Below, piece after piece: positions 22,679-64,000 of a DNA stretch of 64,000 nt. Positions within the stretch are counted from its first letter, which is position 1. The number at the start of each line of letters is the position of its first letter. The DNA is from Escherichia coli (GTDB taxonomy: Bacteria; Pseudomonadota; Gammaproteobacteria; Enterobacterales; Enterobacteriaceae): the NCBI RefSeq assembly GCF_024502345.1, contig NZ_JALDNN010000001.1; one strand, written 5' to 3'. Under the pieces are notes generated by a model. That model was not told the DNA's origin, ran no database searches, and was given only the letters and a program-made list of their open reading frames with translations. The translations under genes were made by a program, and so were the position numbers.

Positions 22679-22754
<76 letters not shown>

Positions 22755-22789
22755 TTGGGTGGTCTGTGCCTTACAGCACTTTCAAATTT

Positions 22790-22865
<76 letters not shown>

Positions 22866-22901
22866 TTGGGTGGTCTGTGCTTTGCAGCACTTTTCAAATT
22901 T

Positions 22902-22977
<76 letters not shown>

Positions 22978-51462: not shown

Positions 51463-52038
51463 GTGCAACGTGAAGATGTACTGGGAGAAGCCCTGAAATT
51501 ATTAGAATTACAAGGGATTGCCAACACCACGCTGGAGATGGTTGCTGAACGTGTGGATTATCCACTGGACGAGCTGCGCCGCTTCTGGCCAGACAAAGAG
51601 GCAATCCTCTACGATGCGCTGCGTTATCTTAGCCAACAGATAGATGTCTGGCGTCGTCAGCTGATGCTGGACGAAACGCAAACCGCCGAACAAAAGCTGC
51701 TGGCACGTTATCAGGCGTTATCGGAGTGCGTTAAAAACAACCGCTATCCGGGCTGTCTATTTATCGCTGCCTGTACGTTTTATCCCGATCCTGGCCACCC
51801 TATTCATCAACTGGCCGATCAGCAAAAAAGCGCGGCCTACGATTTCACCCACGAACTGTTAACCACGCTGGAAGTTGACGATCCGGCGATGGTAGCAAAG
51901 CAGATGGAACTGGTGCTGGAAGGATGCCTGAGCCGGATGCTGGTGAATCGTAGCCAGGCGGATGTCGACACTGCACATCGGCTGGCGGAAGATATCCTGC
52001 GCTTCGCCCGCTGCCGCCAGGGTGGCGCATTGACCTGA
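51463..52038 (+). CDS. yjdC: TetR-family transcriptional regulator YjdC
   Basis: ORF 51439..52038; canonical 191-aa product from the GTG at 51463 ([30 protein letters not shown]). Confidence 0.8.
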
Positions 52039-52144
52039 CAGAAACACAGAAAAGAAGCGATTTGCCGCAATCTTAAGCAGTTGAATCGCTTTTACTGAAA
52101 TTAGGTTGACGAGATGTGCAGATTACGGTTTAATGCGCCCCGTT

Positions 52145-52220
52145 GCCCGGATAGCTCAGTCGGTAGAGCAGGGGATTGAAAATCCCCGTGTCCTTGGTTC
52201 GATTCCGAGTCCGGGCACCA
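52145..52220 (+). tRNA. pheU: tRNA-Phe (GAA)
   Basis: GCCCGGATAGCTCAGTCGGTAGAGCAGGGGATTGAAAATCCCCGTGTCCTTGGTTCGATTCCGAGTCCGGGCACCA, 76 nt with GAA anticodon. Confidence 0.95.
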
Positions 52221-53071
52221 ATATTCATAAGGCCTCGCTGCAAAGCGGGGCTTTTTCCTTTTCTGGCTACGGTAGATTTCTGGTCGTTGCGGCACGTTAT
52301 TTGTTTGCTGGATTTCTCGCCATTTTCGCAGTTGTTCGTTACTTTTAGACACCTCAACATCCTTTGATGTACCTTTTCCTAACCTCACAGCTACGGTCTT
52401 TCTACGGTCCTCTACGATTCCTTTCTCTCAGAGCATTCATAATAAAGTAGAAAATACGGGGAAAACGGGGGAATTATCATTTCGCCCTAATCCGCAGGTC
52501 TTAACGTGATTTTGTCGCGGGGAATAAGGTGGGGAAATCCCCAATAGCAAGCGGGGAAATCTGGCAGCATACCCCCTCCACCATTCACATGGGGATCTTC
52601 ACCAGTCCGTCCACCTACAACAAGCTCTTCTTGCCCTTTCACTTCTTACCGTTTTCAGAATCCCCCGTTCTCCACGCCATCATAAAATGATTTATCCGTA
52701 AGCTTAACGTAATGGACTGTTGAACCTGAGTGTCCGCTGTGAGCGAAAAGCGGAACTTCTCACATAGGTAATGAAGCGTTTCCTAACGTCAGGGTGTACT
52801 AATCAACGAAGAGCAGGTCAGAGGACTCGAACCGCTTTCCTCTTCCATCTACGTAGAATTCCAAGAATTTATGTGCTTTCCAGTTACAATTTAGCCATGC
52901 TAAGTTAGAAAAAGCATTGAGTACCTTAGGATTGTATCGATGATACTCTAAGGATCTTGGAGGCTTGTGAGGCGTAAGGTTCAAAGCCAATAGTTTATTA
53001 ATAGTCACACAAGTGGCTCTATTTTTCGCCTACAAACCTATATTTTTCATACAAATAAAAGAAGTGTATTT

Positions 53072-54490
53072 ATGAATACTCAGCAAATTAAGGTTGGCAG
53101 TGTACCTGAAATTATTGAGCTATTACCAAACTCTAGCGAGCAGGCTGATTCTCATCCTTTCATCCTATCGGCAAACAGTGCATGGGGTGAACAGGGAGCA
53201 GAAATATCAATAGAGAGATTACGCCAAAATATCGAGCCTTGGCTAACAGCTCTCTTCCAATCCGAACATTTAAATTTATTGATAGGTGCGGGTTTAAGCA
53301 CGTCTATTCAAATATCGGCTACAGATTCACCTCCAGCTGGAATGGGTTGGATCAGCGATCTAGCCGTATGTAAAAGTGAAATAGATGCATTTTCTACTCT
53401 GGCTGCCAAAGCTGCAGGTCGCGATAACGGAAATATAGAAGATCAAATTAGAGCTATTAATGAACTTATTAAAGGGCTTGAAATTCTGACAGTGTTGAAT
53501 ACCCCTCAACCTGAAAATCCTCCAGCTCCTCATGCTGCTTATAGAAATCTAAAAACGGATTTAGAAATACTCAAGGGAGAGCTTTCTCGCTGCCTAGGTG
53601 AGTTTTCAAGATCTGTGAGTGCCGGAGAATACTTGATTAAAACTGCTGAACCAAAGCGTAAAGAGGAAACTTTCAACTATCTAGTTAGTTTCTTGATGAG
53701 CTTTGCAAGTAGGACCGCTACTCGCGATAGGTTGCATATTTTTACAACAAACTATGATCGCATTATTGAAGTAGGTGCTGAGCTTGCTGGTTTGAGACTT
53801 ATAGATCGCTTTGTAGGAAGTATCGCTCCAGTGTTTCGATCTTCAAGATTGGAGGTTGATTATCACTATAATCCTCCAGGAATTCGTGGCGAACCAAGAT
53901 ATTTAGAAGGCGTAGCGCGTTTTACTAAGCTTCATGGATCCCTTGATTGGCATGAACAAAATAGCGCGATTAGGCGCTTTGGTTTACCTTTTGGAGCACG
54001 TTCTGTTGAACCTTTTTTAGAAGCTGAAGGCCATCAAAGCAACAGCTTTGAACAACTTATGATTTACCCTAACTCAGTAAAAGATAGAGAAACTGCCGAG
54101 TACCCTTATGTTGAGCTATTTCGAGATCTAGCCGCAGCAACTAGCCGCCCAAATAGCACATTAGTCACCTATGGCTATAGCTTTGGTGATGAGCATATCA
54201 ACAGGGTAATTGAAGACATGCTTACAGTGCCTTCGACTCATGTAGTCATAATTGCCTTCGGAGATCCGCTTGGAAGAATCATAAATTTCATTAATAAGAG
54301 TGGAAGAAAAGCACAGATCACCCTATTAATGGGAGACCATTTAGGAGACCTCAAGACTTTAGTTGATAACTATTTACCTAAACCAGCTATTGATAAAGCA
54401 TCAATAAAAATGACTGAATTGCTTAAGCAAAGAGGATTTATCCAGCCCAAAGAATTAGGTAATTCAACTGGCTCCGAGGTATCACAATGA
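53072..54490 (+). CDS. SIR2-like NAD-binding protein (candidate NADase effector of a SIR2-HerA defence pair)
   Basis: 472-aa ORF with Rossmann GAGxS (LLIGAGLSTS), a sirtuin TQNID-like motif (FTTNYDRIIE) and a catalytic-His motif (FTKLHGSLDWHE); AT-rich. Confidence 0.7.
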   Translation: MNTQQIKVGSVPEIIELLPNSSEQADSHPFILSANSAWGEQGAEISIERLRQNIEPWLTALFQSEHLNLLIGAGLSTSIQISATDSPPAGMGWISDLAVCKSEIDAFSTLAAKAAGRDNGNIEDQIRAINELIKGLEILTVLNTPQPENPPAPHAAYRNLKTDLEILKGELSRCLGEFSRSVSAGEYLIKTAEPKRKEETFNYLVSFLMSFASRTATRDRLHIFTTNYDRIIEVGAELAGLRLIDRFVGSIAPVFRSSRLEVDYHYNPPGIRGEPRYLEGVARFTKLHGSLDWHEQNSAIRRFGLPFGARSVEPFLEAEGHQSNSFEQLMIYPNSVKDRETAEYPYVELFRDLAAATSRPNSTLVTYGYSFGDEHINRVIEDMLTVPSTHVVIIAFGDPLGRIINFINKSGRKAQITLLMGDHLGDLKTLVDNYLPKPAIDKASIKMTELLKQRGFIQPKELGNSTGSEVSQ

Positions 54491-56520
54491 GTTACTTACC
54501 AATAGAAAGATTAGAACAATTAAGAATTGGATCTGTTGGATTTGTATCACCTAATGAAATTAGAGTTTCTTTAGAGATTGACTCCCCTGATTCAGTGTCA
54601 CTTCAAGGCGGTTCCCCCCGCAATTTTCCTCGAATAAATAGTTATGTACTGATCAGTAGCGATGATGGATTTCTCGTCGGACAGGTTGAATGGATTGCCG
54701 TAGAACACTCTCCATACCCCAAAAGAAGAGGCTTACAAGATTTTGGCTTGATAGATCTTCCTTTTCCACTTAAAAAGCTCAGTATCAATCCCGTTGGTAC
54801 TTTGAGAGTCGATAGAAAAAACGAAGATTACAAGTTCACAAGAGGAACAGATGCTTTTCCCTCGGTTGGTGACTCCGTGCTCCTGCCTACTGACCGGCAA
54901 TTAAAATCAATAATAGAATCAGGTGACAATAGAAGAGTAAAAATAGGGGACAGCCCCCTAGCTAACAATGCGGAAATAAAAGTGGACCCTGATAGGCTTT
55001 TTGGACGACATTTAGCTGTTTTGGGCAATACAGGTAGTGGTAAATCATGCTCGGTTGCGGGGTTAATTCAATGGTCTTTAGATGCTGTTTTACAACAGGG
55101 ACAGATTCCAAATGCTCGGTTCATAATACTTGATCCAAATGGAGAATACAGTAGGGCATTCGGCCCAGAATCAAAATACAAGGGTAAGCTATTACGTGTA
55201 GAAGCTAACACTGGTGCTGAAGAGATAGATCTTAAAGTTCCGTCATGGTTATGGAATAGCTCTGAGTGGGGTGCTTTCACTCAAGCGAGTTCAAAAGTTC
55301 AACTTCCTTTACTACGCCGAGCTTTGAGGGCGATGAGAAATGATGTTTTATCAGAAGATGATGTGACAATCCAAGCGAAACACTTCTGCGGTATCCTACT
55401 CGTATCCATACGACAATTATCAAGCCAAGGCCAGATATATGTGAATGGCGGCCATGCCAAAGGTTTCGTTGATAGTTTAACGTCTTGGAATAATAGCCTG
55501 TCCACATTAAACGACAAAATCGATAACAAACCTTTCGATAATCTAATAAACACGATGAATGTGTATCTTTCCTCTCGTATAGGAATAAAATGGCCTGAAA
55601 AACCTGAAGTTTCAGATACTGATCAGTTGATTAATGAATTAAAAAATGCATATGAAACGCTTGGAGGTGATGAACAAGGACTTCTTCCAAAAAGTGAAGA
55701 TTCGCCTATTCGTTTTAAAGGGGATGATTTTGTCGCATACCTAGAAGCTCTAGCTCAAGAGACAGGCACAGAGCAATTCGTTGAATTCCTTTTGACTCGT
55801 ATTCGAACAATGCTAGGTGACACCCGTATAAGTGCAGTAACAAATGATTCGGAACAGCCTATCAGTTTAACTAATTGGTTAGACACTTTTCTCGGTAGAG
55901 ATGGACAAGGTTCCATAACTGTTATCGATTTATCGCTAGTCCCTAATGAAATAATACATTTGGTAACTGCTGTAATTTCCAGAGTAACTTTTGAAGCATT
56001 ACAACGTTATCGAAGACTTAAGGGGAAACCACTACCAACAGTTATGGTTGCAGAAGAAGCGCATACATTTATTAAACGCTACAAAGAAGATAGTGAGGGT
56101 CAGTCAGTCTCTGACGTATGCTGCAAAGTGTTTGAAAAGATCGCACGTGAAGGCAGGAAATTTGGGTTAGGTCTTGTAGTTTCTTCCCAACGACCCTCAG
56201 AGCTATCTCCGACTGTGTTATCTCAATGTAATACTTTTTTGTTGCACAGGATTAGTAATGATAGAGATCAAGAGCAAGTCCATAGACTTGTTCCCGATAA
56301 CATGAGGGGGTTGTTGAGGGAGTTGCCATCGCTACCATCTCGGCATGCCATTCTACTAGGATGGGCTTCTGAACTTCCGGTTTTAGTTAGAATGAAAGAG
56401 CTTACTGAAAAACAAAGACCACAATCTGACGATCCCGATTTTTGGGATGTGTGGTCTAACACTACAGAAGAGCCTCGCGAAGTTAATTGGCAACCAATAG
56501 CTGATGATTGGCAAAGTTAA
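54487..56520 (+). CDS. HerA/FtsK-like P-loop ATPase (candidate partner of the SIR2-like protein)
   Basis: 677-aa ORF; Walker A LAVLGNTGSGKS, Walker B VMVAEEAHTF, downstream VVSSQRPSEL motif; ATG overlaps the upstream stop (ATGA), consistent with translational coupling. Confidence 0.75.
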   Translation: MSYLPIERLEQLRIGSVGFVSPNEIRVSLEIDSPDSVSLQGGSPRNFPRINSYVLISSDDGFLVGQVEWIAVEHSPYPKRRGLQDFGLIDLPFPLKKLSINPVGTLRVDRKNEDYKFTRGTDAFPSVGDSVLLPTDRQLKSIIESGDNRRVKIGDSPLANNAEIKVDPDRLFGRHLAVLGNTGSGKSCSVAGLIQWSLDAVLQQGQIPNARFIILDPNGEYSRAFGPESKYKGKLLRVEANTGAEEIDLKVPSWLWNSSEWGAFTQASSKVQLPLLRRALRAMRNDVLSEDDVTIQAKHFCGILLVSIRQLSSQGQIYVNGGHAKGFVDSLTSWNNSLSTLNDKIDNKPFDNLINTMNVYLSSRIGIKWPEKPEVSDTDQLINELKNAYETLGGDEQGLLPKSEDSPIRFKGDDFVAYLEALAQETGTEQFVEFLLTRIRTMLGDTRISAVTNDSEQPISLTNWLDTFLGRDGQGSITVIDLSLVPNEIIHLVTAVISRVTFEALQRYRRLKGKPLPTVMVAEEAHTFIKRYKEDSEGQSVSDVCCKVFEKIAREGRKFGLGLVVSSQRPSELSPTVLSQCNTFLLHRISNDRDQEQVHRLVPDNMRGLLRELPSLPSRHAILLGWASELPVLVRMKELTEKQRPQSDDPDFWDVWSNTTEEPREVNWQPIADDWQS

Positions 56521-56941
56521 TTAACTTAACTAATTTTTAGTAGTGTTATAAGTAGTGGCTTATATCTGACATGACAGTTTAGGTTAGTAGTTTCAATCTA
56601 ACAGTAAGTGTCCACGGTGACGTTTTCATACTCAAATCTCCTGAAATGTGGGAGATTTGAGTATGGTTGTCCCTTATGAGCGAGGAGCGGAAGTTCTGCT
56701 TTAAGTGTATCAAACCCTCCAGCAAAGATGTTCTTGAATGTAATGCCATAATTTCCCTAACATTCCAGCACAAATCAATTAACTCTCAGTCCATAGTGTA
56801 TTTTACTTAAATTAAAATCAAATACTCTAGGAATTAAAATAACAAGATCACTTGCGATTATGCTATTTTAAATTAATATTTTTGTTTTTACTGGGGAACC
56901 TTCAAAACACGGAGCCAGATTTCTTCGTAGCTACCCTGTTG

Positions 56942-57766
56942 CTAGGGTTTCAAGTATTCCCCTAAAGGAAAGAAATTTTTTGACAACTTTTGGGATTCAG
57001 CAATTTTAACCAAATAAATATAGAATCCCAACAGAGCACTGTTCTCGCTTTCCCCCCTCGAATAGTGAACATGCCCAGGCACCTTCCGGATGAGGAAACC
57101 ATTATTTTTTACCAAATAATACCCTCTATCTAAAATTGTAATTACATCAGGCATATCATCTAAATCGATATTATTTCCAGTCATGTAATTAAACAGCGAA
57201 TCTCGTAAGGTACTTTCCTCTGGACCTTGGAAGGCTAGTAGTAAGAATGGTGTTTTTCTCAAGGTTGCACACATCCCTGAGATTTCCTCTACTAATTGCA
57301 CTGTATTTTGGGGAATATTTTCTTTCATAAAATAACCATCGTCAATACCGATTGGATTGATTCTTACCAAACCTTTTGACCTAACGCAAGCATCTAAGGT
57401 TGTCTTAAGGTTTGAAGCTCCTTCGGTCATTGAGCCAGTGTTTAATGAAGATTTACATTCAATTAACGCTAAAGCTGAATCGACAGGGACCATACACTGA
57501 TCTTTATCATAACTAAGTTTTAAAGAATGTTTCGAGTATATGATAATATCCATCTGACTTGAGAGATTATCCTTAGAGTCAAAAACCTGTCCTGATGTAA
57601 TATCTAAATTACTAGGGAGATTTGCTTTTAAAAATTCCCTTATTACAATTTCTCTAGCACTTCCTTTGCTACTCCCGTTCGTCGTTATGGATGACAAATT
57701 AAATGCTGAAACCAAAGATGCCGTATGGTTTTTTAAGTGTTTCTGGATTAATTTCATAAAGCTCAT
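56942..57766 (-). CDS. Hypothetical protein, possible PD-(D/E)xK-type nuclease
   Basis: 274-aa AT-rich ORF convergent with the SIR2/HerA operon; contains D...ExK-like residues (QMDIIIY ... ALIECK); start codon uncertain. Confidence 0.4.
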   Translation of the reverse strand: MSFMKLIQKHLKNHTASLVSAFNLSSITTNGSSKGSAREIVIREFLKANLPSNLDITSGQVFDSKDNLSSQMDIIIYSKHSLKLSYDKDQCMVPVDSALALIECKSSLNTGSMTEGASNLKTTLDACVRSKGLVRINPIGIDDGYFMKENIPQNTVQLVEEISGMCATLRKTPFLLLAFQGPEESTLRDSLFNYMTGNNIDLDDMPDVITILDRGYYLVKNNGFLIRKVPGHVHYSRGESENSALLGFYIYLVKIAESQKLSKNFFPLGEYLKP

Positions 57767-58194
57767 TCCATTTTAATTTATCTACATCGCTTAAAGGCAA
57801 ATGATGCCACCGGCTACCAATTAAAAATTATCTCAACCTGAGAGATTTTTCCAGACTCCAAACGAAAATAAAAAACTACTCGTCACGTCCCTCCTGGCAC
57901 ATAGCCGACACCAAAACCAGCAACATATGGACAACGGTCCCTGCCCTGATGGCAGGTAATTGTATCAGACTTAAACACATATTATTTCTGTGAACTCCCC
58001 CCAACGGCAGTCCTTTCCTCTGAAGACCAGAACCAGACCGTAAAGCCTGCTCTTTCTGCATTTCCCGTATTAATTCATACCATGTGGCACCAGCATTCCC
58101 TTCGCCACACCAGAAAATCAATTCCCCAATAAAAAAGTGCCGTGCCGGGGATGGGTCAACCCTGACGTTCTTTACACCAGTCACAGGAGGTTAT

Positions 58195-59379
58195 ATGTCC
58201 ACCCCCAAACGCTTCCGTTTTACTAATCAGCTCATTAAATCCCTGCCCCCTAACACATCCGATGCACGCAGTACCGATGCCGAATACAGCGACACCGAGA
58301 TTTCCGGCCTCAAGTGTCTGGTCAGCAGAAGAGAAGGTCGTAAAAAGTTTTTGCTACGCTACCTTTATCATGGACGAAAACGCGCCATCGCCATTGGTCA
58401 CTGGCCTGAAGTGGACGTCAATCTTGCTCGTCAGATTGCCATAGAACACAAACGTTCCCTTGCCACCGGCACTGACCCTAAGCAGGAGCGTGAAAACAAG
58501 AGAATGGAGCTGACGTTCGATGAACTCTTTAATCAGCATTATCTGCCATGGGCAAAATCCGCTAAACGCAGTTGGGGAAAGGATGTTCAGCGCTACCGCG
58601 ATCATATCCGTCCCGCCATTGGTCAGAGGCTGCTGAGCGATATCACACCAGCGAGCATTCTGCGCCTTCAGCAGACGTTAAGTACTTCCCTGTCAGCAGC
58701 TACCTGTAACCGTGTCATCGTACTCATTAAAGCCGTCTTTACATGGGCCGGAAGGCAAAGCATGACCTCTGTCCATCCGGCAAGGGTGGTACAGCTTCTC
58801 AGGGAGAACAACGCCCGACAGCGCTATTTCACCGAGGACGAAATTCGTCGTATTTTTCTCTCCGCCGATAACGATACCAGCCCCGTCGCGGCCCGCTATG
58901 TCAAACTGTTGTTACTGACCGGCCTTCGTCGTGATGAGCTGCGTCTGGCTAAGTGGGAGCATGTTGACCCGGTTAAACGCACCCTGTGGCTCCCGGAAAC
59001 CAAGAATGGCTATGGGCGGATTGTTCACCTTAACTCACTGGCGATGGACGTAATCAGAACGCTGCCAACGCAGCGGGGAAATCCGTGGTTGTTTATCGGT
59101 AAAAAACAAGGAATGCCGCTGAATAACCCCGTTAAAGCCTTTCAGCGTATCGTTCGTCGGGCGGGAATTTTCGACCAGGAAGTGTGTATTCATACCTGCC
59201 GCCATTCGGTTGCCGCCCTCATCGTGTCCTACGGCGGAACACTGTATGACGTTCAGGCTCAACTGGGGCACCGCAGCAGTCAGTCTTCACAACGTTATGC
59301 GCATCTTCACCCTCAGCGCTTACAAAACACCAGTCAGTTACTGGCGGAAAGGATAACGGCTCAGCTACCGTCCTTGTGA
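58195..59379 (+). CDS. Tyrosine recombinase / phage-type (P4-like) integrase
   Basis: ATG at 58195 preceded by AGGAGG; 394 aa; C-terminal catalytic R..HxxR..Y signature (HTCRHSVAALIVSYGG ... LGHRSSQSSQRYAHL). Confidence 0.85.
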   Translation: MSTPKRFRFTNQLIKSLPPNTSDARSTDAEYSDTEISGLKCLVSRREGRKKFLLRYLYHGRKRAIAIGHWPEVDVNLARQIAIEHKRSLATGTDPKQERENKRMELTFDELFNQHYLPWAKSAKRSWGKDVQRYRDHIRPAIGQRLLSDITPASILRLQQTLSTSLSAATCNRVIVLIKAVFTWAGRQSMTSVHPARVVQLLRENNARQRYFTEDEIRRIFLSADNDTSPVAARYVKLLLLTGLRRDELRLAKWEHVDPVKRTLWLPETKNGYGRIVHLNSLAMDVIRTLPTQRGNPWLFIGKKQGMPLNNPVKAFQRIVRRAGIFDQEVCIHTCRHSVAALIVSYGGTLYDVQAQLGHRSSQSSQRYAHLHPQRLQNTSQLLAERITAQLPSL

Positions 59380-59389
59380 TAACAGAAAA

Positions 59390-59418
59390 GCAGAGGCAAG
59401 TGCCCCTGCTTTTTTTTT
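59390..59418 (+). terminator. Rho-independent terminator between convergent genes
   Basis: Hairpin gcagaggcaagtgcccctgc followed by a run of nine T. Confidence 0.6.
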
Positions 59419-59434
59419 ACTGTTCAGCCATCAG

Positions 59435-59791
59435 TCAGAACGGGATGGCCCCATATTCTTCATCCGGCACCCGGTTATCATCAAATCTGTTATAGAGTTC
59501 ACGAGCACACTCGCGCGCGTCTTTAATAGACATACGAGGGAACCTGCCGAGGGGTTCATAATAGCAGGCCCCTTCAAGCGTATAACGAGCCAGGAATTTA
59601 ATCTCACCGTTGGCAATGACGGCCCGGAGCGCAGGCTCGCTGCCATCGAAGATTTCACGAGAAATGCCGTGATAAAGGCACTCCGCCAGTGTGTTAACCA
59701 GAGCGTAATCATTGAATGAGGTTTTTTCTTCATTTTCGCTGCTGATAGCGTGAGGAAAACCGTCATAGTACTGGTCTGATTCAAAAATCAT
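59435..59791 (-). CDS. Hypothetical protein
   Basis: 118-aa ORF downstream of the replication-like gene; no recognisable motif. Confidence 0.35.
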   Translation of the reverse strand: MIFESDQYYDGFPHAISSENEEKTSFNDYALVNTLAECLYHGISREIFDGSEPALRAVIANGEIKFLARYTLEGACYYEPLGRFPRMSIKDARECARELYNRFDDNRVPDEEYGAIPF

Positions 59792-59840
59792 ACATCACCT
59801 TCTATTGGTTGTTATTCAGTCAAAATGGTTTTATTCAGGG

Positions 59841-61769
59841 TTAAAATTCGGTCATCACATTGCATTTCAGAAACGCTTTTTTGACCTGGTAGTAAGACTG
59901 CGCCATCGTCTTCAGCGCTCTTTTTTTATAGTGTCCGGCACTTTCGCCAAGCAGATAACCGGAACGCTCTAACGGTCTGGCCACATCAACGGTCTTAAGT
60001 CCCTTTTCAGAACAGAGCTTTTCAAACACCGATTCATAAATCAGGAAGTCGCCGGTTTTGTAATGGACGAATCCCCACATATCTCCCGGGCATCGGGCAT
60101 GTTCGTCACGCAGGGTGATAAAGTGCCTGCTGCTTTTTGTCACCAGCGTCAGCTGAAGCTCCTCCAGCATGTTACGCACCGGGTTATACTGATTCTGGTT
60201 ATCATCCAGCCAGCGTCGTGCAGCGGACATAACGGATTCAGCCACCGCATCGCTTTCGAAAGGTAAAAGGCCATATTTCAGCGCCTTCTCTCCTGCCAGC
60301 CATACCAGCGCAAATCTTTTCAGTCCGCGCCGCTGAACGCGGGTAATATCACGCCCCTCATCCCTCAGGGCCTCTTCCAGTGCGTTACAGCAATCATCTG
60401 TCTGTTCCTGGAGCCAGGATGAAAACTCTGCGTAGGTGCGAAGACCGCCAGCCGTATTTTTCCCGGATAACAGTTTGCCGATAAATGCAGGCCCGGCATG
60501 ACCATAAGCCTCTGCCAGCCCCGTCTTCAGTGCATCTGCACGGGCACGTGTTTCTGATACCGGTTCATCCGGTTTTTGAGCATCCTCAGGCAACAGTTCC
60601 ATACTGATGGCCCTGTGCTCCTGCCCTCCCTGTAACACGGCTTTCTGTTCAGCCAGCTTTTCGGAGATTGACATCTCACCGGTGGAGAGAATAAACATGC
60701 GCCATTTAAACGGCTCATCTGCCGTCAGGCCACGGTTCAGGCGCTCTTTTGCCGTACCTGACGTAATGTTGTAAAGCAGTGAGGAAAGTTGCTTATGATT
60801 ACTCGCACCCAGTTCATCGACGCAGGCGACCAGACCGGAATAGTCAGCGAGAAGGCGCTCCATCGCGTTAGGCGTGGTATTCCAGCGAATAATATTTACA
60901 TTCCCCCCACTACCCGGCTCGCTGCCATCACCATGGACCGATGCAGCCAGCATCAGGAGAAGCGTTTTACCGGTGGTGGATACGCCGTGAAAATGAAACA
61001 TGCCCACATCCATACCGGCAGGAACCAGAAGCATCGAAGCAAAGGACGCACTCAGTGCAAAGGTCTGCGCCCAGCCATGGACATTTTCCCGGATGAGGTT
61101 AATCCACTCCTCCAGGGCCCCACCTTTGTGCAGTCCGGGACGCACGCGGAATCCCGGCAGTAGATAATCAAACCCGGTCAGAGAGGTCACAACGGGCTCA
61201 TGACCATGTAAAAAGGCCATATCCTCCGAAACGAATCCCATCGCATCTGCCATCAGATAGACAGGCAGCGGTAAACTCCGGCAGCGCTGAAGAAAACGGT
61301 CAAAAAGGGCAAACTGCTGTGGAGAGGAGCCAACACAAAATCCACGATCTGCCAGTTTGCCTACTACCTGAGCACCGCTCTGAACAATATCCTCAAAGCG
61401 TACCAGGGCCTTAACATACTTACCCAGCCCGTTACCGGTCATCAGGCTGATCCCAAGACCGGACTCCTTATCTTTTCCACAAAACAGGGCGACAGGCACA
61501 ACTGGCGTGGTGCAAACCTGCACAGGTTTCTGTCCACCGATGTAGAAAAGGCCATTAGCCGTATTCACATAATGCCGTGGCAGCCCATCACCAATACCGA
61601 GTGAAGCGATATCATCTTCACCGACCTCAGTGTTTTCAGCACGCCTGATAATTGCTTCCGACATTTTGTTGAAATTTTTATCGCGGTCAGCAAAAGCGCG
61701 AATACGCTTAATCCCGGAAACCTTAGGAACATTAGTTGTCACTTTTTTATTCATGTGTATTACCATCAA
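59841..61769 (-). CDS. P-loop NTPase, putative primase/helicase-like replication protein of an integrative element
   Basis: 642-aa ORF with Walker A (HGVSTTGKTLL) and a DE box (VACVDELG); immediately downstream of an integrase; start codon uncertain. Confidence 0.5.
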   Translation of the reverse strand: MMVIHMNKKVTTNVPKVSGIKRIRAFADRDKNFNKMSEAIIRRAENTEVGEDDIASLGIGDGLPRHYVNTANGLFYIGGQKPVQVCTTPVVPVALFCGKDKESGLGISLMTGNGLGKYVKALVRFEDIVQSGAQVVGKLADRGFCVGSSPQQFALFDRFLQRCRSLPLPVYLMADAMGFVSEDMAFLHGHEPVVTSLTGFDYLLPGFRVRPGLHKGGALEEWINLIRENVHGWAQTFALSASFASMLLVPAGMDVGMFHFHGVSTTGKTLLLMLAASVHGDGSEPGSGGNVNIIRWNTTPNAMERLLADYSGLVACVDELGASNHKQLSSLLYNITSGTAKERLNRGLTADEPFKWRMFILSTGEMSISEKLAEQKAVLQGGQEHRAISMELLPEDAQKPDEPVSETRARADALKTGLAEAYGHAGPAFIGKLLSGKNTAGGLRTYAEFSSWLQEQTDDCCNALEEALRDEGRDITRVQRRGLKRFALVWLAGEKALKYGLLPFESDAVAESVMSAARRWLDDNQNQYNPVRNMLEELQLTLVTKSSRHFITLRDEHARCPGDMWGFVHYKTGDFLIYESVFEKLCSEKGLKTVDVARPLERSGYLLGESAGHYKKRALKTMAQSYYQVKKAFLKCNVMTEF

Positions 61770-61838
61770 ATTACGCCACCGTCAGAAAACGGGTGCATCA
61801 GAACCATAGTTAAAAACCATACCGTTGAGTGAAGGTTG

Positions 61839-63251
61839 TTACCCCATCGCCCGGTTAACGACTTCGTGGTAACGCGCCGGGGAAGCGTGCAAGTAAAGCT
61901 CCGTTACTTTGATAGTGCTGTGACCCAATAAGTCTTTGACGGTGTGAATGTCGGCCCCGCTCTCAATGAGCTTTGTCGCAAAGGTATGACGCATCTCATG
62001 GATGGTGAACGGTGGAATACCCGCAGCCTCACAAAGTCGTTTTTGCAGGCGACGCGGCTCAGCAACCGGATTGTCGGTTCCCTTGCCCGGAAATACCCAG
62101 CCTTCATCACCCAGATGCTGACGCTGTTCTGTCAGAAGAACGAAAGCCTTATCACATACCGGTACACGGCGTAGTTTGCCGTTTTTGGTATGGCGAAGGG
62201 TGATAACCTTGCGGCTCCAGTCCACATCTTCAAGACGAAGGTGACGGGTTTCCCCCAGACGCAGCCCCGTCAGGGCAAGGAACATGAGAAGAGCAAGGGC
62301 TTCATGATCGGGTTTACCATTACGCCAGCGCTCACAGACGTCCATCCAGCGCTGAAGCTGGGAGTCATCCATGGCACGGCGATCTGACGTCACTTCAGGC
62401 AGCGCTTTGATATAAAGCGCCGGAGAGCGGCTGATGTATCCCATGCGTATAGCCCAGGTAAACACCGCTTTAATGAGCGCCAGATGGCGGTTGCGGGTGG
62501 CAGGCTTGAGATCGAGATTATGCAGATAGCTCAGAATATCTGCCTCCGTCATACCTGCCAGCTTTTTGTCACCGAGAAGAGGGCGCAGGTATTTACGGAT
62601 CTTAGAAAGGTCGGTGTTAGCTGAACGCTTAACGCCCGTGCTGAGTACGCTTTTCTCATACTCATCCACAAGCTCATTAAACGTCATTTTACTGTGAGTA
62701 AGAAAACGCTCACCGTAAGCCTCAACGGCGGTCTTGAGCTCCTGAATTATTTTAAAGGCATGCTCCCTTGCATCTTTAATTGAAATTTCCGGGTAGCCTC
62801 CTACGGCAACGTAGATATTCTTTCCGCGAATACTTTTGCGGACAATAAATTTAATGCGACCTGATGGATAGAATATTGCCTTAAGTCCGGTTAACTTCTT
62901 ATCGCTGGTCTCGATTGTTTGTGCAGCTTGTACTGCACGGATTTTATATTCATCAAAAAGGGCTTTAGTAAAAACACCTCCAGTATTTTTAGGTGCAACC
63001 CCTGGATATTCTACAACATCAGATACTCCAGAGTCGGAATACCCCTGAGCTTCCACATCTACATTGAAGGAATTTTTATGAGCAGCTGTGATGCTCTTTT
63101 CATCCAGCACTTGCGTTATTTTATTTAAAGGGTAATTAACTTTCATAATATGTACATGGTCCTCTGAAAATTCAGATGATAATGAGTAATTTAATATGTC
63201 GGCCAACAATGGGATAAGCTTATTTATTCGTGGCATCACTTTCAAGCCCAT
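61839..63251 (-). CDS. Tyrosine recombinase / integrase (second copy, distinct sequence)
   Basis: 470-aa ORF; catalytic signature RLGETRHL ... HEMRHTFATKLIESG ... LGHSTIKVTELYLH. Confidence 0.8.
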   Translation of the reverse strand: MGLKVMPRINKLIPLLADILNYSLSSEFSEDHVHIMKVNYPLNKITQVLDEKSITAAHKNSFNVDVEAQGYSDSGVSDVVEYPGVAPKNTGGVFTKALFDEYKIRAVQAAQTIETSDKKLTGLKAIFYPSGRIKFIVRKSIRGKNIYVAVGGYPEISIKDAREHAFKIIQELKTAVEAYGERFLTHSKMTFNELVDEYEKSVLSTGVKRSANTDLSKIRKYLRPLLGDKKLAGMTEADILSYLHNLDLKPATRNRHLALIKAVFTWAIRMGYISRSPALYIKALPEVTSDRRAMDDSQLQRWMDVCERWRNGKPDHEALALLMFLALTGLRLGETRHLRLEDVDWSRKVITLRHTKNGKLRRVPVCDKAFVLLTEQRQHLGDEGWVFPGKGTDNPVAEPRRLQKRLCEAAGIPPFTIHEMRHTFATKLIESGADIHTVKDLLGHSTIKVTELYLHASPARYHEVVNRAMG

Positions 63252-63479
63252 GAAAAATCAGCTCTTACATGCCCATTGACATTTAATACTCAAGTCAGAA
63301 AGACCATGATGATTCATCAGGAGTACTCCTGCTCAGGGAAAAGGGAAAATAGCGTTAAACCCTATAAAAAAATTGTGTTCCGGATGCATCGCCCAAAGTA
63401 AGTCAACTTTTGAGGCCCTGAAGGGCTTTGTTGAATAAATCAGATTTCGGGTAAGTCTCCCCCGTAGCGGGTTGTGTTT

Positions 63480-63884
63480 TCAGGCAATACGCACGCTTTC
63501 AGGCATACCTGCTTTCGTCATTTTGTTCAGCGCTCGTACCAGGGCCATAGCCTCCGCAACCTGACCATCGTAGTCACGCAGCGTCAGTGAACCCCCGAAC
63601 AGCTGTTTTACCCGGTACATCGCCGTTTCCGCTATCGAGCGACGGTTGTAATCTGTTGTCCATTTCCACCGCGCATTACGCTGATTAGCCACTGCACGGT
63701 TACGGTCTGCATATTCACCGGGCCAGTAACCCGCACCTTTTCGGGGAGGGATAAGCGCGCTGATTTTCTTACGCCGCAGTTCATCGTGACAGAGCCGGGT
63801 GTCGTAAGCGCCGTCTGCCGATGCTGCCCTGATTTTTCTGTGAGTCTGCCGGATAAGACCCGGGAAGGCTTCTGAGTCCGTCAC
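63480..63884 (-). mobile_element. IS5-family DDE transposase, C-terminal fragment (truncated or frameshifted)
   Basis: 134-aa ORF with DGAYDT and RSIAETAMYRVKQLFG (IS5-type D..E region); reading frame breaks upstream. Confidence 0.55.
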
Positions 63885-64000
63885 ATTGTTCAGCGACAGG
63901 TCAGCGCAGATGATTTCATGTGTTTTACTGTCAACGGCGAGATGCAGCTTACGCCAGATACGGCGGCGTTCCTGGCCATGCTTTTTGACTTTCCACTCGC

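Follow-up and report, generated by a model that had tools for sequence, protein, structure and literature searches.

What stands at the distal end of this stretch of Escherichia coli DNA, and is the transposase gene found there broken or simply cut by the edge of the sequence analyzed? The initial annotation of the window (the whole stretch of 64,000 nucleotides considered here) placed a truncated IS5-family transposase at 63480–64000, whose reading frame was said to break upstream; this was taken to indicate IS decay or a programmed frameshift and to mark a likely rearrangement point of the surrounding island. The feature is an already known element, IS903B, visible in part owing to the window boundary. 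Very probably, the window holds one end of an IS903B copy inserted upstream of an integrase gene in the island at pheU, with the window edge cutting through the transposase gene.

A typical IS903B measures 1,057 bp; it has 18-bp inverted repeats and a single gene, for a 307-residue DDE transposase, and is flanked by a 9-bp target duplication. The transposase binds both terminal repeats, excises the element, and pastes it into the target via 9-bp staggered cuts. Positions 63424–64000 of the window are the right-hand 577 bp of this element (IS5 family, IS903 group; minus strand), cut by the end of the 64-kb window. The reference for comparison is the 1,057-bp IS903B of E. coli 13C1065T (NZ_CP019259.1, 2809167–2810223; L002 1501–2557), whose flanks form a perfect 9-bp duplication, CCTGCAGAG. 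The alignment of the two copies contains 577 identical bases out of 577 and a single 12-bp gap, or 98.0% identity to the named element with the gap counted. They also share the 18-bp repeat, gene orientation, stop codon, D193, E259 and Y-R-E-K motif; the window copy differs in lacking codons 239–242 (MTGS), and only 55% of the element is visible. Apart from this 12-bp in-frame deletion, the sequence is that of the commonest E. coli IS903B allele, and RefSeq labels matching records ‘IS5-like element IS903B family transposase’. The initial assignment to the IS5 family is therefore correct, and can be refined to IS903B in the IS903 group. The element is widespread: megablast against 5,426 complete E. 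coli genomes finds it in 1,628, and at least 5,000 plasmids contain it too. Since it carries no point substitutions in 577 bp, the window copy appears to be young.

The end of the element that lies beside the 3′ end of the transposase gene is formed by an 18-bp terminal inverted repeat, GGCTTTGTTGAATAAATC, at 63424–63441 (plus strand). The same repeat bounds full-length 1,057-bp IS903B copies, and it is the sole match in the 64-kb window at up to three mismatches (0.04 expected by chance). Because this repeat sits at 63424–63441, the true element boundary is 63424, not 63480. The search for terminal inverted repeats that the initial annotation had suggested thus returns, within the window, one perfect 18-bp repeat just outside the interval it had delimited; both this repeat and the 12-bp deletion, at 63678/63679, had been overlooked. 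A second IS903B, or a composite transposon, was considered for the window and rejected, because the terminal repeat matches at one place in the 64 kb and 52000–64000 is free of long repeats.

The transposase frame occupies 63480–63998 on the minus strand and encodes residues 132–307 without 239–242 (numbering of the 307-residue IS903B protein), followed by a stop codon at 63480–63482. Translation yields 172 sense codons and one terminal stop, and the frame stays open as far as the window reaches; the other two minus-strand frames of the same interval are full of stops. The 134-residue ORF at 63480–63884 begins at the first GTG past the window edge, not behind a stop. Because no frameshift or stop codon is visible, the apparent truncation is a window-edge artifact, and the upstream frame break reported earlier is not there. 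The identification of the C-terminal part of a DDE transposase was sound: the 172-residue fragment scores 186.1 bits against NCBIfam NF033579 (IS5 family transposase; cut-off 140) and 93.8 bits against Pfam PF01609 (DDE_Tnp_1; cut-off 23). Two catalytic residues lie inside the window, D193 (63813–63815) and E259 (63627–63629), along with the motif residues Y252, R255 and K266; the codon for D121 is expected about 11 codons past base 64000, outside the window. In an alignment of 90 relatives at 34–82% identity, D121, D193, E259 and K266 are invariant, and Y252 and R255 are invariant or nearly so.

The 12-bp in-frame deletion relative to IS903B is placed by alignment at 63678–63679, with a boundary ambiguity of 1 nt. 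On the coding strand, CAGCG[AATGACCGGGAG]TAATGCG becomes CAGCGTAATGCG, and the protein changes from ..ANQR-MTGS-NARWKW.. to ..ANQRNARWKW.., with the loss of M239–S242 (MTGS). A slipped-strand origin was considered and rejected, as the boundaries share 1 nt of microhomology and no clear direct repeat. The loss of M239–S242 is absent from the 120 best close cluster representatives and from 13 further relatives down to 70% identity. Megablast does not find the deletion allele in 5,426 complete E. coli genomes or among the best 5,000 plasmid matches, although a carrier would rank first; no genome or plasmid match exceeds a gapped identity of 98%. The exact deleted junction has no hits in GTDB representative genomes, JGI metagenomes or IMG/VR; as a positive control, the undeleted sequence was found in 38 IMG/VR stretches. 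None of eight reconstructed full-length transposases without MTGS is on record by exact look-up. Because the copy appears young and carries no point substitutions, the deletion is probably recent, and it seems private to this copy among the public sequences searched.

How the deletion bears on the protein can be judged from conservation and from a model. The spacing between the invariant R230 and the near-invariant W246 is 14–24 residues in the 90 relatives, 15 in IS903B and 11 in the window copy. This spacing, shorter than the range in the relatives, suggests a possibly impaired copy. Of the 90 relatives, 72 retain G241 and 59 lack residue 242; 242 is the only naturally length-variable position, so some shortening at this spot may be tolerated by the protein. 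The AlphaFold model of the IS903B transposase (pLDDT 94, pTM 0.89) has a helix at 225–240, a turn at 241–243, a helix at 244–249, and a helix at 252–269 bearing Y252, R255, E259 and K266. On this model, the deletion would take away the last residues of one helix together with the turn that precedes the catalytic helix. Fold matches to the model (E ~1e-5) include the ISCth4 transposase (6xgx), piggyBac (6x67) and retroviral integrases, but these share 10–13% identity with the IS903B transposase at TM-scores of 0.3–0.45, the likeness of a generic DDE fold. A sequence search of solved structures with the IS903B transposase gave noise only and no sequence-related structure, and for this reason the solved DDE structures are uninformative on the loss of 239–242. 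A literature search on these residues returned features of the IS903 group only. We infer that the deletion probably weakens or abolishes the activity of the element’s own transposase, leaving a largely immobile copy. The argument for IS decay in the initial annotation is not supported; the in-frame deletion of conserved residues is a weak point in its favor, set against an intact visible end and the lack of any stop, frameshift or substitution in 577 bp.

The insertion lies upstream of an integrase gene, in an intergenic region of ~600 bp of which the window retains 63147–63423. IS903B and the annotated start of this gene, which encodes a 435-residue integrase, are 277 bp apart, and the transposase and integrase genes run in the same direction. 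In strain MB15 and 10 loci with an identical integrase, 599 bp separate the integrase gene from a divergent gene of 117 residues. Eleven related islands, all with the identical integrase, are uninterrupted at the site and read ...GCCCTGAAA/TAAGAAAATGG..., with TAAG after the slash, and the match of the window to strain MB15 is exact through 63422. None of the 10 loci encoding the identical integrase has an IS at this site, and neither does any contig encoding an identical copy of the island’s DUF6602 protein (all at most 16.5 kb). When 61000–64000 was compared by megablast with complete E. coli genomes, the top matches, with 81% coverage, stop at 63423, and the junction occurs in none; the exact junction pattern likewise has no hits in GTDB genomes or JGI metagenomes. 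The IS is thus a strain-specific insertion between divergent genes, within the island and away from its border. In a scan of 63000–64000, candidate promoters and terminators were no more numerous than in shuffled sequence. Since IS903-group elements in Paracoccus are reported to carry outward-reading promoters (PMC3281130), effects of the insertion on integrase expression are possible.

A single base at the junction departs from a textbook simple insertion. The nine bases abutting the element, GCCCTGAAG (63415–63423), would be one copy of the target duplication if the insertion was simple. At 63423 the window has G where 11 of 11 uninterrupted relatives have A, the sole difference in the last 224 bp; such a mismatch is not predicted by a textbook simple insertion. 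In the 56 flanks of 28 duplicated IS903B sites, the base touching the element is most commonly G (25 of 56) and most rarely A (3 of 56). Because G is common and A rare beside duplicated sites, the simplest reading of the G at 63423 is a pre-existing A-to-G polymorphism that made a better target. Alternatively, cleavage may have been off by one, or the GGG run may have been misassembled. The two origins predict different sequences past the far end of the element: a 9-mer reading GCCCTGAAG if the G was a pre-existing target polymorphism, and GGCCCTGAAATAAG if the element carried one extra G.

The island itself follows tRNA-Phe (pheU, 52145–52220), and the flanking dcuA-cutA-dsbD-dicD-tRNA-Phe segment matches E. 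coli chromosomes at 97–99.5% identity. Three tandem tRNA-Gly(GCC) genes at 22679–22977, about 29 kb from tRNA-Phe, are arranged as in the E. coli glyVXY-pheU region and represent ordinary chromosomal context. Between tRNA-Phe and the first island integrase stand the genes for SIR2, HerA and DUF6602 (53072–57766). PADLOC scores of 512 bits for SIR2 and 838 bits for HerA identify the pair at 53072–56520 as a SIR2-HerA anti-phage system. The convergent DUF6602 gene (56942–57766) encodes 274 residues, the N-terminus of which resembles NucC/PD-DExK nucleases. A conserved module at 58084–63146 comes next, made up of an integrase, an Arm-domain protein, a DUF927 protein and a second integrase. The latter is the 435-residue tyrosine integrase upstream of which IS903B lies (61839–63146, minus strand; Phage_integrase domain); it is intact and is not part of the IS, and 350 blocks of the collection contain exactly this protein. 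The 5.4-kb module (58084–63251), with two tyrosine integrases flanking Arm-domain and DUF927 proteins, is found at pheU in many enterobacterial genomes at 97–99.6% identity, and GCA_024451485.1 has it twice, at two chromosomal sites.

IS elements have struck the pheU island family many times. In E. coli cS33a, an IS903B without target duplication (L003 21916–22972) replaces 869 bp containing the DUF6602 gene (window 56916–57784), a replacement that resembles a deletion associated with the IS. The closest related island (L005, GCA_053008245.1) is 99.56% identical over 5.4 kb. It bears a different IS903-group allele, ~91% identical and without target duplication, at L005 927–1983, as well as two IS3-family insertions (L005 15390–21308), one splitting the DUF6602 gene and the other between the SIR2 and HerA genes. 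The L005 IS903-group copy was considered as being the same IS copy as that in the window: it stands ~7.7 kb further along the island, in a backbone that is 99.56% identical. The idea that an adjacent deletion, carrying along one flanking G, brought it next to the integrase was rejected, as the L005 allele differs at 98 of 1,057 positions from the allele that the window copy matches exactly.

These observations fit a reconstruction in which IS903B would have inserted into the intergenic region upstream of the integrase gene, within the island at the tRNA-Phe gene pheU. The window ends inside the transposase gene, so that only residues 132–307 are visible, uninterrupted by a stop or frameshift. 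If otherwise complete, the copy would be 1,045 bp long and would end near 64468. A complete copy would carry the second inverted repeat, GATTTATTCAACAAAGYC, near 64451–64468, reading GATTTATTCAACAAAG(C/T)C at the far end, and, for a simple insertion, GCCCTGAA(A/G) and then TAAGAAAATGGTAATAG would follow directly after this repeat. The completeness of the window copy is a prior and not an observation, since the 5′ 45% of the element lies beyond base 64000. Among complete E. coli genomes, 2,208 records contain at least 80% of the 577-bp end and 2,172 contain at least 80% of the whole 1,057 bp.

Other accounts of the same sequence differ mainly in what they place beyond base 64000. The element could be full-length and stand at a rearrangement joint, produced by an IS-mediated deletion or inversion or by recombination between two IS903B copies, in which case the sequence past its far end would be something other than the continuing island. 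This comes closest to the rearrangement point proposed by the initial annotation, and we regard it as possible, though rather doubtful. In a sample of 40 full-length IS903B copies, 28 are flanked by a perfect 9-bp duplication, none by a duplication with a single mismatch, and 12 by no duplication at all; the first group are simple insertions and speak against a joint, whereas the last group makes one conceivable. Two of the 12 without a duplication, those of cS33a and L005, are in closely related pheU islands, and the mismatched 63423 is unexpected for a clean simple insertion. Yet IS-mediated deletions join the exact IS end to the target, which leaves the odd base unexplained here too, and the window contains no second IS903B copy or repeat. 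It is unlikely that the copy is a real 5′-truncated remnant, cut beyond base 64000 by another insertion or deletion and devoid of a complete gene and a second end. Partial matches to IS903B do occur in E. coli records (e.g. with 12–50% of the element covered), and the 12-bp deletion is at least one lesion that this copy has already suffered. However, the 577 bp carry no substitution against the commonest allele, which implies a young copy; near-full-length copies are present in nearly as many E. coli records as this end, and no sign of truncation is seen inside the window.

Two further accounts concern the peculiarities of this copy. That assembly or sequencing errors account for the deletion, the junction G or both, and that the true copy is a plain IS903B, is decidedly unlikely: a 12-bp gap that is clean, in frame and perfectly flanked is atypical for a base-calling error, and the rest of the copy and the flank are error-free relative to the references, even though multi-copy IS elements are prone to assembly errors, 63423 lies within a GGG run, and the deletion allele was found nowhere else in the collections searched. 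It is very improbable that both peculiarities are biologically meaningful, with the transposase lacking 239–242 being a naturally arisen variant with altered behavior (e.g. an inactive copy that fixes the element beside the integrase) and the junction G the outcome of an unusual insertion chemistry, such as off-by-one donor cleavage that carries one flanking G. Expression of the transposase through programmed ribosomal frameshifting from two overlapping frames has next to no probability. It derives from the initial impression of a frame break, to which nothing in the window corresponds; all 172 visible codons lie in an open frame, which is colinear, codon for codon, with the single uninterrupted 322/307-codon ORF of the reference IS903B, and IS903-group elements have been described as single-ORF elements of ~1,050 bp with 9-bp duplications (PMC3281130). 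The preferred reading remains one end of an IS903B copy upstream of the integrase gene, cut by the window edge.

A comparison with known elements supports the assignment to IS903B and sets the copy apart from frameshifting insertion sequences. Programmed frameshifting is used by some IS5-family subgroups (the IS427 and IS1031 groups) and by other families such as IS1 and IS3, and involves two overlapping frames and a slippery site. All of these encode DDE transposases in small insertion sequences, like the window copy, but the latter has one continuous frame. IS903 of Tn903 and IS102, which belong to the IS903 group, are closer, with lengths of ~1,050–1,057 bp, ~18-bp repeats, one transposase ORF and a 9-bp duplication; the ~91% identical L005 allele is of this kind. 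Dozens of positions distinguish these alleles from the window copy, whereas the IS903B allele matches it exactly.

The biological weight of this copy is small, as few insertion sequences are commoner than IS903B in Enterobacteriaceae, and the private deletion and the junction base are minor curiosities. For annotation, the locus teaches that an ORF touching the edge of a window is no evidence of truncation. For the island, the IS903B copy split the regulatory region between the integrase gene and its divergent neighbor, and this insertion could affect island excision or integrase expression. At the level of the family, IS903-type elements have repeatedly remodeled these pheU defense islands.
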